The position numbers and the translations under genes are program-made. Positions 1 to 4,285 of a stretch of DNA of 4,285 nucleotides are shown in pieces. This DNA is from a virus (lineage: Duplodnaviria > Heunggongvirae > Uroviricota > Caudoviricetes). The stretch lies in the IMG/VR virus record IMGVR_UViG_2728369591_000004, positions 1 through 4,285 of that record. The stretch is one strand, 5' to 3'. Each line of letters begins with the position of its first letter. Positions within the stretch are counted from its first letter, which is position 1. The notes under the pieces are model-generated. The model had not been told where the DNA came from. It ran no database searches and was given only the letters and a program-made list of their open reading frames with translations.

Positions 1-46
1 GCACCTCAAAAACACCATCATACACTAAATCAGTAAGTTGGCAGCA

Positions 47-328
47 TCACCCATCCGAGCATCTGCGTTTCTTCGCGATAGAACGCAGTGAGATACCTAT
101 AACAAAGTGAGCAATGATCAGTTCATATTCTTCTGGTTTATATTTACGCAACCGCACCACACAACCGTCTATCATGATCCCTTCATCATCATCACACTGG
201 AGGCGTGACTTTTTACCGTGTGGTAAAAGCCCCTTGAAGCCTGCCGCGATCGGCTGCCAGTCCACTCCGCTGTTATCTGCTGCTGCCCATGCTCCCCAGC
301 GGTCCAAAACCTCGTACATATCACGCAT
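47..328 (-). CDS. Q: Phage antitermination protein Q-like (phage 21/82, QuuD-like family), 93 aa, possibly C-terminally short
   Basis: ATG at 328-326 preceded by GGAGAG with 5-nt spacing; the ORF track's TTG at 343 is probably an artefact. Translation MRDMYEVLDRWGAWAA...IAAGFKGL...SRLQCDDD...GC..RL.K...CSDG matches, from memory, the conserved pattern of DLP12 QuuD (MRDIQMVLERWGAWAA...SIAAGFKGL...CCDDD...CCSDG). Stop TGA at 49-47; QuuD as I recall it is about 127 aa, so this copy may lack about 30 C-terminal residues. Confidence 0.7.
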   Translation of the reverse strand: MRDMYEVLDRWGAWAAADNSGVDWQPIAAGFKGLLPHGKKSRLQCDDDEGIMIDGCVVRLRKYKPEEYELIIAHFVIGISLRSIAKKRRCSDG

Positions 329-345
329 CAAATCTCTCCACAAAA

Positions 346-735
346 TCAGGCCAGCACACCAATTGCCAGCGCGCGATCGATAAATCGAAAAATTAGCTCC
401 AGTTGGGAACCATACTTCTCTTCAAATGCCACAGTGTCCACATGCAACTCGTCGTGATGCTTTCTGCACAAAGGCAATACAAAGAGGTCATGCGCTTTTG
501 TACCCTGGCGACGCGCCTTACGCGTTAACCAGCCTTCTGCTTCCAGCCGTGCGATAGCCGTTCTGACGGTACTCATCCCCGCGCCAATCTGGCGGGCAAT
601 GGTTTCAATTGATGGCCAGCACACACCTTCGTCATTACTGAAATCAGCCAGGCGGGCCATAATTGCCACACTGGATAATTTCATGCCTGACGCTGCGCAA
701 CCATCCCATACATAGCCGGTTAATTTAGTGCTCAT
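346..735 (-). CDS. HTH_36-type DNA-binding protein resembling the N-terminal domain of phage replication initiators (O-like), with an atypical Cys/His-containing C-terminus; possible deletion fusion
   Basis: ATG at 735-733 with AGAGG about 6 nt upstream. Residues about 18-80 (LSSVAIMARLADFSNDEGVCWPSIETIARQIGAGMSTVRTAIARLEAEGWLTRKARRQG) fit the PF13730-like pattern (LaLadhan.dG.cwPS.etLA...G.S.rTV.RAl..LeE.GLl). The C-terminal 45 aa (LPLCRKHHDELH...) do not continue the usual replication-protein pattern. Stop TGA at 348-346, 17 nt before the Q start. Confidence 0.55.
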   Translation of the reverse strand: MSTKLTGYVWDGCAASGMKLSSVAIMARLADFSNDEGVCWPSIETIARQIGAGMSTVRTAIARLEAEGWLTRKARRQGTKAHDLFVLPLCRKHHDELHVDTVAFEEKYGSQLELIFRFIDRALAIGVLA

Positions 736-1083
736 GACCGACCTCTATTTCCCTGAATTTACGACGAAACTGTTCGAGCGGGCTGAAGCACTCATGCTCA
801 TAGCCTTCGCGGAGGTAGATAACCCGTTGTGTTTCCGGCTCCCAACGAATGACTCTGACGGGCACTCCGTAGTGATCTTTGAACCAGCGGTTAACTTCTC
901 GCAAAGGACTGTCTCCTTCTGCCGGTTGAAATCCCCCACAGCCCACTCAGCAAAGCTGTGGGTTACAATTTCCCTGTCACCTGGTACATTCACTGCATAG
1001 CAATACTCCACCTTCGCTTTTCCACCCGGTACAGGAAGCGCAATCAGTTGCGAGTGACGGTAGTGTGTTGTTAAACTGTTCAT
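725..1083 (-). pseudogene. Small phage protein of unknown function, interrupted by a -1 frameshift at a G5 (plus-strand C5) run at 933-937
   Basis: ATG at 1083-1081 overlaps the upstream TGA (ATGA coupling), with GGAGA upstream. The N-terminal 50 codons in this frame look protein-like ([50 protein letters not shown]). After the G5 run, that frame turns Ser-rich and low-complexity, while the -1 frame (725..946) reads [53 protein letters not shown] and ends with TAA overlapping the next gene's start. One extra G would join the two frames into about 120 aa. Confidence 0.4.
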
Positions 1084-1631
1084 GCGTTAGTTTCTCCACA
1101 GTCACGACACGCCACGGCGCCCGGAGCTGCACACTCGCGGGCGTCATTACTTTCTGAAATGCAAAATATTTTGTAGACCAGTGCTGCATGCTCCTGCAGC
1201 TTCGAAATTGAGAGATACAGCTCGTCGTTAATTGCTGTCTTCTCATGCGGTTCCACTACACCGTCTTCAATTGCTGAACGAATCTGTTTTGAATAACTGC
1301 CGATCTGTTCAATGACCTCCAGCAGGCGTTGGTTGATATCGGCGTTGTCCACATCCTCGACATCAGGAAGAGACACAAAGACGCCATTTGCAGACTGCGC
1401 CACAGCGTCAGCAATGAAGTGAGTTCCACCAGCACGTTGCAAAATCATTGCCCATCCCAGCGGGAAAATCTGATCGCCATCGGCACGAAGGCGGTTAAAT
1501 AATGCGTTCTCTGTTACATCCAGCCAGTCAGCAGCTTCAGCGTACCCCCCCGGCAACGCTGCGATAGTTTTTCTGACAGCTTTCACGTACCACTCAGGCT
1601 GTTTTTCTACTTTCCAGTGATGCTTACCCAC
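1080..1631 (-). CDS. Phage CII-like regulatory protein (putative Phage_CP76 / YdaT-type), 183 aa
   Basis: GTG start at 1631-1629 preceded by AGGAGG with 6-nt spacing; it overlaps the cro-like stop by 8 nt. Its position directly downstream of cro matches lambda cII and the Rac/CP-933P ydaT arrangement. The segment [35 protein letters not shown] resembles, from memory, the HTH region of 186-CII/CP76-family proteins. The C-terminus carries a Cys-containing tail ([14 protein letters not shown]). Family assignment is moderate; gene presence is high. Confidence 0.55.
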
Positions 1632-1884
1632 GGTTCACCTCCTGTTCCTGTGGTTTAAACCCATTCTGGTTTTGGCTAGATTGAAAACGTGCCGGATAAA
1701 GAATCTGCATTTCGCTGACTTCACCCTTAAAAAAATTGGCTAATCGTTCTGCAAGCTCGATAGATGGAATCTGCTCCAGCCTCTCAATACGACTCAACGT
1801 CGCTGGATTGACTTGAACACCCGCAGCAACATGCTGCAAAGTGAAACCATGCGCCTTACGCACATTTCGTAATGGTGATTGCAT
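1624..1884 (-). CDS. cro: Cro-like XRE-family HTH transcriptional regulator, 86 aa
   Basis: ATG at 1884-1882 with AGAGGG 3 nt upstream. The segment LRNVRKAHGFTLQHVAAGVQVNPATLSRIERLEQIPSIELAERLANFF is a typical Cro/C1-type HTH. It is divergently transcribed from the CI-like repressor across a 97-bp operator-rich intergenic region. Confidence 0.8.
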   Translation of the reverse strand: MQSPLRNVRKAHGFTLQHVAAGVQVNPATLSRIERLEQIPSIELAERLANFFKGEVSEMQILYPARFQSSQNQNGFKPQEQEVNRG

Positions 1885-1981
1885 ATGCCCTCTAAATATT
1901 GCGCGTTATGCATGTCATTTCACGCAATTATTTTGCGCAAGTTGATTTGCTTATCACGCAATAAAGAAATGTAATAAACGC
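1885..1981. promoter_or_regulatory. OR-like divergent promoter/operator region between cro and cI
   Basis: The 97-bp intergenic region contains 15-bp sites with TTGC-N7-GCAA symmetry: 1899-1913 TTGCGCGTTATGCAT, 1913-1927 TGTCATTTCACGCAA and 1947-1961 TTGCTTATCACGCAA, plus the palindrome TTGCGCAA at 1933-1940. TCACGCAAT occurs at 1920-1928 and 1954-1962. Exact -35/-10 elements were not confidently assigned. Confidence 0.6.
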
Positions 1982-2674
1982 ATGAACATAGGAAACCGAG
2001 TCAGACAACTTCGCCAAGCGAAGAACATGAAAATCGCCGATCTCGCTGAAGCAATAGGAGTAGATGCGGCGAACATCTCGCGCTTAGAAACGGGTAAGCA
2101 AAAACAATTTACCGAACAAACACTGAGTAATATTGCCAAGAGCTTAGGTGTTGATATTGCTGATCTCTTTACCTCTGCCCACAAAAGTAATACTGTATAT
2201 AAAAACAGTAATAATGAGGATGTTGCGCAGGTGAAGGATGTGTTCCGTATTGAAATGCTGGATATCAGTGCCAGTGCGGGAAATGGCCTTATCCAGGGCG
2301 GTGATGTCATTGATGTGATTCATGCCATCGAATACAGAACTGATAATGCTGTATCAATGTTCGGCGGACGACCAGCCAATCACATCAAAGTTATCAACGT
2401 TCGTGGGGACAGTATGTGTCCAACCATTGAGCCAGGAGATCTCATCTTCGTTGATATCAGCATCAATCAGTTTGATGGTGATGGTATATATGTCTTTGGT
2501 TTTGATGACAAAATATACGTTAAAAGACTTCAAATGATTCCTGACAAACTGCTGGTGATTTCTGATAACCAGATTTACCGTGAATGGGGAATTACTAGCG
2601 AAAACGAACACCGATTCATGGTCTTTGGAAAGGTCTTAATCAGTCAGTCGCAAACCCTTAAGAGACATAATTAA
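1982..2674 (+). CDS. cI: Phage CI-like repressor: N-terminal XRE HTH plus C-terminal S24 (LexA-like) autopeptidase domain, 230 aa
   Basis: N-terminus RVRQLRQAKNMKIADLAEAIGVDAANISRLETGKQ is an HTH. The C-terminal domain has the catalytic Ser in GDSM (S144, nt about 2411-2413), Lys in VKRL (K181) and a candidate Ala-Gly cleavage site (A99-G100 in ISASAGNG). The SD before ATG 1982 is weak (aataaacgcATG), so the transcript may be leaderless or short-leader like lambda PRM. Stop TAA at 2672-2674. Confidence 0.9.
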   Translation: MNIGNRVRQLRQAKNMKIADLAEAIGVDAANISRLETGKQKQFTEQTLSNIAKSLGVDIADLFTSAHKSNTVYKNSNNEDVAQVKDVFRIEMLDISASAGNGLIQGGDVIDVIHAIEYRTDNAVSMFGGRPANHIKVINVRGDSMCPTIEPGDLIFVDISINQFDGDGIYVFGFDDKIYVKRLQMIPDKLLVISDNQIYREWGITSENEHRFMVFGKVLISQSQTLKRHN

Positions 2675-2693
2675 CCTCAATATCCCATCCATC

Positions 2694-2716
2694 GGCCACC
2701 TAAAGGTGGCTTTTTA
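2694..2716 (+). terminator. Rho-independent terminator downstream of cI
   Basis: Stem GCCACC (2695-2700), loop TAAA, stem GGTGGC (2705-2710), followed by TTTTT (2711-2715), about 20 nt after the cI stop. Confidence 0.7.
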
Positions 2717-2728
2717 TTACCTATAAAT

Positions 2729-2765
2729 TTGCATATCTCGCAAATATCACTTGCATATCTCGCAA
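2729..2765. promoter_or_regulatory. OL-like operator pair: two direct copies of TTGCATATCTCGCAA
   Basis: Identical 15-mers at 2729-2743 and 2751-2765, 22 bp centre to centre. Each has TTGC-N7-GCAA symmetry and matches the OR site 1947-1961 (TTGCTTATCACGCAA) at 13 of 15 positions. TTGCAT could serve as a -35 and TATCTT (2774-2779) as a weak -10 for rightward transcription. The position after cI parallels lambda OL/PL. Confidence 0.5.
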
Positions 2766-2931
2766 TTTAATTTTATCTTTTGTTCCAGACCAACTACAGG
2801 ATTACAACAAAATCTGGTTGCAACACGGTGCATGTGTCGTAAGCAGTCAGTAAATGTCAAAAACGAACAGGCAGGACGCCCACGAAGTAGCCGCCTGGGG
2901 CATATGAAGTCCAGGATGATTCGTTAGCAAC

Positions 2932-2954
2932 AAAAAAGCGTCCTACAGGACGCT
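2932..2954 (-). terminator. GC-rich hairpin with a U6 tract on the minus strand: intrinsic terminator for the antigen 43 remnant transcript
   Basis: Stem GCGTCC (2938-2943), loop TACA, stem GGACGC (2948-2953); plus-strand A6 at 2932-2937 gives UUUUUU after the hairpin on the minus strand. The stop codon of the minus-strand ORF (2945-2943) lies inside the hairpin. On the plus strand the same hairpin lies directly 5' of the boxA-like element. Confidence 0.5.
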
Positions 2955-2955
2955 T

Positions 2956-2968
2956 AGCTCTTTAACAA
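2956..2968 (+). promoter_or_regulatory. boxA-like antitermination element (GCTCTTTAACAAT)
   Basis: Plus-strand GCTCTTTAACAAT matches the rrn/lambdoid boxA consensus (T/C)GCTCTTTAACAA at 12 of 12 positions after the first base. It sits in the leader between the OL-like operators and the strong RBS/ATG at 3001-3016, where a nutL site is expected. Confidence 0.4.
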
Positions 2969-3000
2969 TCTGGTCCCCATCAACAAGTAACTGATAACTT

Positions 3001-3050
3001 GAGGAGGTGTGAAATGCACAAAACAGAACCAAAAATCGTCGCGCCCGGAT
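3001..3050 (+). other. Orphan translation start: strong RBS plus ATG and 12 codons (MHKTEPKIVAPG) of a truncated first early-left gene, possibly N-like
   Basis: GAGGAGG (3001-3007), 6-nt spacer, ATG 3014-3016. After about 12 codons the plus-strand sequence becomes the antisense of the antigen 43 remnant (junction about 3050); the remaining ORF to 3190 is low-complexity antisense. Identity cannot be determined from 12 residues. Confidence 0.3.
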
Positions 3051-4285
3051 GCCCAGACGGAAGCCGGCACGCACATGTTGTGCACTGCCATGCCCGAACT
3101 TCACATAACCGGCGTTATCCTGGCCGTCATCCAGGGAGAGTCCCTGCCAGGTGTACTGCAGTTGCGGCTCCAGCATCAGATTGTCAGTGATACTGAAGGG
3201 CAGACCGGTTTCCAGTGAGCCCAGCCAGCCCCAGCCCCGGGCGCGGAAGTCGTTATTGTCCGATGACGCTTTCATGCTGTGGCGGGTTCCCTGTGCCACA
3301 ATGTCAGCCCACAGGCCGGAGGACGTGTGTGTCAGATTCAGGTATCCGCCCAGGCTGCCGGCATCATCCCGGACCGTGCCGGCGCGGGAACCGTCATCAT
3401 CCTTAACATCAACGGAAGAATGGCCTGCAGCACCATATACCCCTGTCGTCAGAGACATACCGGCAACCTCTGTTCTCAGCAGGTCACCCTCCAGACGGAC
3501 GAAGCCATAGCTGCCGCTGCTTTCCGGCGTGGCTCCACGGGCAATACCCCCCATTCAGCGTGGTATCCAGTGCGTGACCATGTACAGTCTGGTCGCCGCC
3601 GGCATAAACCACAGTGGTATTTGCCGTTCCTTCAGCAGCCACAATCTGACGACCATTTTTATTGATGGTGGTGCGTACGGCATCTCCGTAGACGGTCTGC
3701 CCTGTATCACCATTTTCTGCATCCGGTCCCCCTTCCGCGCCGGTATTCACAACCGTGTCGGTTGCCATTGCGCCGGATTTGACGGCCTGCCAGCCCTTCT
3801 CATTAATGACGGTACCCGTTGCAATCCCGCCTTCATGTACCCACTGCTCACCGCCGTTCAGAGTGGTATTCACTGCCTGCCCCTGAAGGCTCTGTCCGCC
3901 TCCGGCACTGATAACCGTGTCTGAAACGCTTCCTCCGGCATTCACTCTCTGAAGACCACCACCGGTGACAGTAGTGTTGTTGGCGGTACCGCCATTTTGT
4001 ATCCATTGGCCGCCGGTATTCGCCTCGTTATCCGGCCCATACTCCAGCCCGGTACTGATGGTCATTCCGTTGGCCGTACCGAGAACAATCTGGTTGTCAT
4101 GATTTGTCAGTGTTCCGCCGCTCACGGTTTCTCCCGCCTGTACGACCGTGTCAGCAGCCAGTGCCGGGACTGATGTGACAGCAGCAAGAGACAGCACAAT
4201 CGCCACACCGGCGCATTTTCCCCGTGAGCGGGCCAGTTCGGAAGCCACCACCAGGGTGCCCGTAATGTGATTCCATACCAGCCTG

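Follow-up and report, generated by a model that had tools for sequence, protein, structure and literature searches.

The window analysed here is a stretch of 4,285 nucleotides (positions 1–4,285 of the IMG/VR virus record IMGVR_UViG_2728369591_000004), most of which is occupied by the remains of a lambdoid prophage. Alignment to the phage SfII (NC_021857) and Pfam matches identify positions 52–3057 as the immunity-region stump of an SfII-type prophage in Escherichia coli, and between positions 501 and 2925 the window is 98.8% identical to SfII at the nucleotide level (28 differences in 2,425 nt, no gaps). SfII itself was induced from a wild Shigella flexneri 2a strain, forms plaques and infects several serotypes (PMC3772137). 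The minus strand carries, in order, cro, a CII-like gene, a small open reading frame (ORF) region, a helix–turn–helix (HTH) ORF and the antiterminator gene Q, and a CI-like repressor gene lies on the plus strand at 1982–2674, an order that an earlier reading made from the sequence alone (the sequence-only reading) had already recognized. SfII shares with the window the series cI-cro-cII(ymfL)-ymfM followed by the start of an O-like replication gene, the operators and the terminator after cI; only SfII is complete, with a full O-like gene and its iterons, nin-region genes, a 103-residue Q, lysis and structural genes and int/xis/gtr. With SfII as the intact reference, the earlier description of the locus as a replication-less prophage remnant is borne out, the origin and the O-like gene's C-terminal portion being deleted. 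The accompanying description of an apparently intact CI/Cro/CII/Q cascade does not hold for the HTH ORF and Q, two of the five genes on the minus strand: the former is a chimera, and the latter covers only positions 1–92 of a 118-position family model. The anatomy of the stump (SfII type, truncated Q, fusion scar) is established with near certainty, and the whole account, in which the repressor switch and a ymfM output survive and Q is dead, is one that we consider probable.

The HTH ORF (346–735, minus strand, 129 residues) is an in-frame fusion of residues 1–78 of an O-like/primosomal protein with residues 278–329 of a DUF968/HNH protein, as seen by Pfam, alignment, PHROGs and the annotation of PGAP, which treats it as two pseudogene fragments. 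Its Pfam matches are HTH_36 at residues 23–70 and only positions 120–171 of the 171-position DUF968 model; its PHROGs matches cover 'replication initiation O-like'/primosomal positions 1–81 and HNH endonuclease positions 280–334 of 334. Residues 1–80 agree with SfII O (SfII_41) at 78 of 80 positions, residues 1–78 are identical to YmfN of the K-12 prophage e14, and residues 78–129 agree with the C-terminus of the DUF968 protein SfII_47 at 50 of 52. Comparison of the parental sequences places the junction at 501–505, where a 5-nt microhomology, TACCC, is common to both parents (...TTTTG-TACCC-ATTCC in the DUF968 gene and ...GCGGT-TACCC-TGGCG in O) and 4,212 bp are missing in SfII coordinates. 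The 129-residue ORF is best read as a deletion scar and not as a gene family. The Q/DUF968 segment of the window is 79% identical to SfII and 87% identical to another prophage, which reflects mosaicism.

The compactness to which the sequence-only reading drew attention is real: cro to Q spans 1.84 kb in the window and 6.09 kb in SfII, where the interval holds a 313-residue O-like/primosomal gene, PerC-like, methyltransferase/PAPS-reductase, LexA-like, RusA and KilA-N genes and a 329-residue DUF968/HNH gene, followed by Q. Reading frames that abut or overlap as in a streamlined operon could be taken to mean that the layout is native to a small phage or satellite in which O/P-type replication genes were never present. 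We give this explanation almost no credence, since the HTH ORF is composed of the first 78 of 313 O-like codons and the last 52 of 329 DUF968 codons, both parent genes are found whole at 96–100% identity in SfII and in many prophages, and the junction bears a microhomology signature. By comparison with SfII, the compactness is the product of one 4.2-kb deletion and truncation at both ends and not of an unusual architecture. The fragment of O that remains keeps the N-terminal DNA-binding domain, and residues 79–313 are deleted together with an iteron array. In SfII_41 (approximately 8786–8942 of the SfII locus L004) this array has a 15-bp period (GTCAGATTTTGACGG-like) and at least six copies with internal dyads, and it is unannotated in the record; lying inside the O-like gene, it is probably the origin, as in lambda.

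Truncation of Q is the second departure from an intact cascade. What remains is a pseudogene of a Q21-family antiterminator (47–328, minus strand; ORF to 343) with 93 codons, cut after Gly93, as indicated by PF06530, PGAP, the relatives and an alignment with Q21 (PDB 6P18). The family assignment is strong by Pfam and PHROGs, the match to PF06530 (Phage_antitermQ) ends at position 92 of 118, and the PGAP label reads 'missing C-terminus'. Full-length relatives have 103–120 residues and extend 21–26 residues further (TIRKELQTALGFIEGCFYFIK in strain 300033); the 120-residue Q of locus L129, described below, spans positions 1–118 of the 118. The truncated product ends in ...KKRRCSDG, and its TGA stop codon is formed from the end of an insertion sequence. 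Comparison of IS1 ends shows that positions 1–51 of the window are not phage DNA and form the last 51 nt of a 768-bp IS1A element, with the end GGTGATGCTGCCAACTTACTGAT... on the minus strand. In E. coli CH4784 the complete element (L001 11284–12051, 768 bp) has typical terminal repeats and an annotated IS1A transposase; it adjoins the window at position 1 and is followed by a 3'-truncated fdeC on the opposite strand. Its 9-nt flanks, CAGCAAGCC and CATCCGAGC, form no 9-bp target-site duplication, which speaks against a plain insertion into the Q gene and for a deletion or rearrangement mediated by IS1, one that probably placed the phage stump beside fdeC. Strain E4 (H4) was considered as a precursor sharing the IS1–Q junction and was rejected as a false join, the IS1 of E4 being located elsewhere.

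In Q21, the second helix of the HT[loop]H motif binds the Q-binding element (QBE) and C-terminal residues contact RNA polymerase, and loading occurs only on the PR'-proximal paused complex (10.1101/651190). The N-terminal 86 residues of the truncated Q align to Q21 residues 20–99, an alignment by which the truncation would fall just before the DNA-recognition helix and the polymerase-contacting tail. The sequence-only reading had instead envisaged an intact CI/Cro/CII/Q cascade in which Q drives SOS-inducible read-through into whatever lies beyond position 1, and the gene order, the tight coupling of the ORFs, the intact CI and the good ribosome-binding site of Q, whose GGAGAG Shine–Dalgarno sequence is indeed present, speak for it. 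This possibility is very improbable in our judgement. Q lacks its 21–26 C-terminal residues and takes its stop from the IS1 terminus, and the missing segment, aligned after Q21 residue 99, comprises the recognition helix and the tail. Loading of Q-family proteins takes place only at a cognate PR'/QBE, normally situated immediately beyond the Q gene. Neither these sites (PR'/qut), nor a pause site, terminator or late genes are present downstream of Q here; the region left of position 1, where a promoter and further genes were to be sought, holds IS1 and the opposite-strand fdeC fragment. The lack of a promoter or genes beyond Q, and a truncation of Q that takes away an essential domain, are outcomes that the sequence-only reading had itself named as refuting it. 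The truncated Q should therefore be unable to act, because the recognition helix, the loading site and the cargo have been lost.

The repressor has fared differently. CI (230 residues; HTH and Peptidase_S24 domains by Pfam and alignment) is identical to SfII CI at 229 of 230 positions, the sole difference being a conservative I159V. Pfam places an N-terminal DNA-binding domain (HTH_3 and HTH_26) at residues 7–64, and the C-terminal part matches Peptidase_S24 (PF00717, E = 5.5e-19). The catalytic residues and the cleavage site named in the sequence-only reading are all present: Ser144 (GDSM) and Lys181 (VKRL) align on the UmuD catalytic dyad (GDSM and VKKL motifs), and the only Ala-Gly pair, residues 99–100, lies 44 residues ahead of Ser144. 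We infer RecA*-stimulated autocleavage of this CI from its 229/230 identity to the repressor of the induced phage SfII. The divergent cro-like HTH_3 protein (1624–1884, minus strand, 86 residues; Pfam and alignment) is identical to SfII Cro at 86 of 86 positions, and the same protein accession occurs in an intact prophage of strain E4.

Between the two genes lies a control region (1885–1981) with operator-like 15-mers of the form TTGC-N6-CGCAA at 1899–1913 and 1947–1961, found by motif count and as inverted repeats. When this motif was scanned with one mismatch allowed, the window contained nine matches against 1.9 expected, a number reached in none of 200 shuffles. A repeat and motif scan found two further, identical 15-mers, TTGCATATCTCGCAA, on the plus strand beyond cI at 2729–2743 and 2751–2765, with a spacing of 22 bp, which we regard as OL-type operators (2729–2765). 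Operator-like repeats on both sides of cI constitute the OR/OL layout expected of a lambdoid immunity region. Between cI and these repeats a hairpin scan detected a terminator-like hairpin (2694–2711, plus strand), at a position equivalent to that of a rho-independent terminator annotated in the SfII record. Beyond them, a stump of the early-left (PL) leader extends over 2766–3057 on the plus strand, with right ends of phage homology at approximately 3045–3057; phage homology stops at about 3057, and the early-left operon has therefore been lost.

Downstream of cro, the CII-like gene is ymfL (1080–1631, minus strand; Pfam, PHROGs and alignment), whose GTG start is overlapped by the end of cro by 8 nt, as the sequence-only reading had noted. 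YmfL is identical to SfII cII at 182 of 183 positions and 95% identical to K-12 YmfL, and its matches to PF06892 (Phage_CP76, the CII of phage 186; E = 1.5e-13) and to PHROG 101, 'CII-like transcriptional activator' (E = 4e-70), make it a putative activator. The single small ORF described next in the operon proved to be two overlapping frames; the two boundaries that had been quoted, ATGA at 1080–1083 and TAA (725–727) with ATG (733–735), both exist and belong to different frames. The first frame (745–1083, minus strand, 112 residues) has no Pfam family match and is identified by alignment as an orthologue of ymfM, being identical at 108 of 112 positions (96%) to SfII_40 and likewise to K-12 YmfM, which is annotated as 'cell division inhibitor YmfM'. 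As in e14, it lies downstream of ymfL in the PR operon. The second frame is a DUF4222 gene (725–904, minus strand, 59 residues) with a TTG start behind AAGGAG, supported by a Pfam match (E = 1.3e-18 for the ORF 725–946), a PGAP coding sequence and the pattern of substitutions by codon position. It overlaps ymfM in another frame and the start of the O fragment by 11 nt.

In e14, ymfM is the SfiC gene. When it is expressed, Z-ring formation is blocked without any need for SulA, SlmA or MinC; YmfM contributes to SOS filamentation, and CohE is the proposed SOS-sensitive repressor of the element (10.1101/2020.11.19.390815). By analogy, the YmfM of the window is probably an SOS-inducible inhibitor of cell division, of the SfiC type. 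The ymfM/DUF4222 overlap was also compared with a Klebsiella phage homologue, from which it differs by 4, 3 and 26 substitutions at the successive codon positions of the DUF4222 frame; DUF4222 is identical at 53 of 59 positions, and the YmfM frame at 24 of 51 within the overlap and at 36 of 59 in the non-overlapping N-terminal part. Constraint in the overlap appears, from these counts, to follow the DUF4222 frame.

The closest parallel to this arrangement is e14 of K-12, for which SOS induction of a division inhibitor has been documented in a remnant that is replication-less, the inhibitor lying behind a CI-like repressor (10.1101/2020.11.19.390815). Its module, ymfK(cohE)-ymfT(croE)-ymfL-ymfM-oweE (the SfiC system), likewise has an S24 CI-like repressor divergent from cro-ymfL-ymfM and followed by a truncated O-like gene, whose residues 1–78 are those of the window and whose break lies no more than about 1 nt away from the one seen there. 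The two differ in immunity, the window having SfII-type CI and Cro with similarity to YmfK limited to 15 of 39 residues in the S24 domain. In e14 the O fragment is fused to terminase and int/xis, tail-fibre genes, pin and mcrA are kept, whereas in the window it is fused to the DUF968 tail and truncated Q, no integrase is present and the remnant is not at the icd site.

Three events account for the present structure. A 4.2-kb deletion joined codon 78 of the O-like gene to codon 278 of the DUF968/HNH gene in the nin region; lost with it were the iteron origin and the remainder of O, as well as the PerC-like, methyltransferase/PAPS-reductase, LexA-like, RusA and KilA-N genes. An IS1-associated rearrangement took away all late genes together with PR'/qut and the 21–26 codons at the end of Q, and the early-left arm was cut about 380 bp beyond cI, against an autotransporter pseudogene. 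What is left intact comprises CI with its OR and OL operators and, from the start of the PR operon, cro, ymfL and ymfM/DUF4222. In unstressed cells, CI would repress PR and confer immunity to phages of SfII immunity. During the SOS response, RecA* would stimulate self-cleavage of CI at Ala99-Gly100, PR would fire and cro, ymfL and ymfM/DUF4222 would be expressed, Cro and YmfM being the only consequential products; to judge from its 96% identity to YmfM/SfiC of e14, YmfM would prevent the FtsZ ring from forming and make the cells filament. Given the intact CI and operators, an SOS-responsive switch driving cro-ymfL-ymfM is plausible. Regulation and phenotype, drawn from near-identity to SfII and e14, are held with only slightly more confidence than doubt.

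Several observations weigh against this account. The configuration occurs in only two of 5,426 complete E. coli genomes (CH4784, chromosome 3,543,401–3,547,686, and PCN061), a genome being counted when at least 80% of the window was held in one place; the remnant is therefore to be regarded as recent rather than selected. A sigma-70 consensus scan of the cI–cro intergenic region called no promoter, so that PR and PRM are placed by identity to SfII alone. That region differs from SfII at only two positions, 1893 and 1916, which might affect the switch. A terminator-like hairpin lies at 350–370, ahead of Q. Finally, the published filamentation clone was the ymfM ORF, in a paper that is silent on DUF4222 (10.1101/2020.11.19.390815), and by coordinates the ymfM ORF contains DUF4222 minus its last six codons, with its own Shine–Dalgarno sequence. 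Position 1893 lies in the cro Shine–Dalgarno sequence (AGAGGG here, GGAGGG in CH4784 and SfII) and is also the sole substitution between the window and CH4784; position 1916 lies in the operator region.

On such grounds the remnant might be inert debris, its switch unresponsive or lacking a physiological output, which persists because it is recent and neutral. The scarcity among genomes, the IS1 and pseudogenes on its flanks, the lack of a consensus promoter and the two single-nucleotide differences in the control region all fit this view. On the other hand, CI, Cro, YmfL, YmfM and DUF4222 are full length and 96–100% identical to functional phage or e14 counterparts, the operators are conserved and the analogous e14 module is functional in K-12. 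We therefore regard inert debris as unlikely, though it deserves more weight than the alternatives discussed above, and retain the account of a surviving repressor switch with a ymfM output.

The position of the scar in the O-like gene is shared well beyond e14. The break site is the TA in 5'-GCGGT-TA-CCCTGG, approximately 60 bp from the iteron origin (L004 9001–9002 in SfII): homology to SfII is lost at L004 9002 in e14 (e14 L003 8404) and at 9001 in the window. This one dinucleotide is the site of at least 19 distinct junctions, those of e14 and CPS-53 of K-12 included, as counted partly with junction-pattern searches that could only find junctions at this TA and at the second TA site described below. 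When IMG/VR and GTDB genomes were scanned for the 30-mer that adjoins the junction on its right, the matches comprised 115 intact loci, loci of the e14 type and three further left flanks diverging at the same point; patterns excluding the intact and e14 flanks gave eight further junctions, and a complete-genome sample one more (ETEC4067). A less biased count places five lineages at 8997–9002 and four singletons elsewhere in the 940-bp gene, two of them in the iterons. In a partial-match search, 1,573 of the 2,111 genomes carrying the region were intact across the site, and the ends in the sample fell at 8911, 8998, 9002 (e14) and 9053, with a reciprocal end at 9002.

The N-terminal side is followed, after ...ARRQG(78), by at least 14 different partners from farther downstream: a LexA-like gene at a distance of about 2 kb, DUF968 (at two positions), endolysin, Rz, a spanin-like ORF, terminase (in e14), major capsid E, head completion, tail terminator, tail fibre, tail-fibre assembly, Lom and one unknown. 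Since all identifiable partners have the same orientation, the joins amount to simple deletions, some 2 to 30 kb long. In the native sequences of the partners, 2–5 nt of microhomology are seen; the O-side end always lies within GGGTA (gene sense), and TACCC is kept in 13 of 14 junctions. On the ori side, CPS-53 (KpLE1) of K-12 (yfdO/oweS; L136 3403) and four further junction types retain ...GCGGTTA, past which they diverge. CPS-53 has the other part of this O-like gene, complementary to that in the window and with its break at the same TA; unlike the window it has kept the ori/C-terminal side and lost the whole immunity region. That the ori-side junctions are natural mosaic O alleles was ruled out, as none has an alternative in-frame N-terminal domain. 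A second site 54 bp away, GCGA-TA-GCCG (equivalent to window positions of about 551–555; L004 9055), has five distinct junctions (L002 8629; L138, L148–L152). The DUF968 site GCCACGG-TA-TCCG has been used twice, with the first O site in L129 and with the second in L150, and partner sites in general resemble the break site, with the form CGG(N)-TA-(N)CC.

Two of these junctions have further peculiarities. In e14, the terminase joined to oweE has GGTTACC, the core of the O break site, 6 nt past the junction (CATCACC followed across the junction by GGGGTTACC; native terminase in L063), and speculatively a TA-TA join could have been followed by a 9-nt ACC...ACC slippage. Locus L129 (IMG/VR 2718218128_000007, gene-sense 6326–10400) has independently undergone a deletion that runs from the first O site to the DUF968 tail, where its partner site is approximately 60 nt from that used in the window. 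It keeps the full-length Q and a holin–lysozyme–Rz cassette, and by gene content it would be the replication-less but Q-competent configuration that the sequence-only reading had imagined. L129 also has a 1,275-residue ORF beside the integrase, and a second deletion joins its terminase small subunit to the tail fibre.

Nothing relevant to this breakpoint was found in the literature searched. We are evenly divided on whether an unrecognized, site-directed breakage–rejoining process repeatedly disables replication in SfII/e14-type prophages and so drives their domestication. Candidate causes are an as yet unrecognized nuclease or recombinase with sequence selectivity, or breakage of forks linked to the origin, with microhomology joining thereafter. 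Three others were rejected. Terminase cutting at a cos-like site was discarded, the SfII cos (nt 1–140) being without meaningful similarity to the break site, and so was a hairpin or cruciform, DNA folding z-scores at the break sites being an unexceptional −1.5 to +0.3. The break site reads GGTTACC, and BstEII is specific for GGTNACC; this sequence occurs ten times in 20 kb of SfII, and ligation of 5-nt overhangs after cutting of the BstEII type would give junctions 1 nt longer than those observed.

The remainder of the window is non-phage DNA, a frameshifted and truncated pseudogene of an AIDA/Ag43-type autotransporter (3051–4285, minus strand; Pfam and PGAP). In CH4784 the side to the right of the phage DNA holds this pseudogene together with a GTPase gene and hsdMSR, a type I restriction system; neither an integrase nor an att site is found near the remnant, and PGAP calls Q and the DUF968 and HTH fragments pseudogenes. 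The sole insertion/deletion difference between the window and CH4784 is in a poly-C tract of the autotransporter pseudogene (3541–3546, six C in the window and seven in CH4784), at the position of the frameshift between the passenger and β-domain ORFs, and may be due either to homopolymer slippage or to a sequencing difference. No Rfam family or tRNA was found in the window, and a PADLOC scan of it for defence systems gave generic HTH matches only.

The Q-driven output once proposed for this locus does not exist. The locus is an ordinary stump of the e14 kind, another decayed lambdoid remnant, in which the breakpoint at the scar is the only feature that is possibly new. It does present a second immunity flavour, SfII-type CI and Cro, wired to ymfL-ymfM, and this SfII-type version offers a natural test of whether SOS-inducible division inhibition by prophages is a general function retained by such stumps. 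If a specific mechanism behind the breakpoint is true, it would explain the repeated locking of these prophages into the chromosome and would offer a defined sequence for testing.

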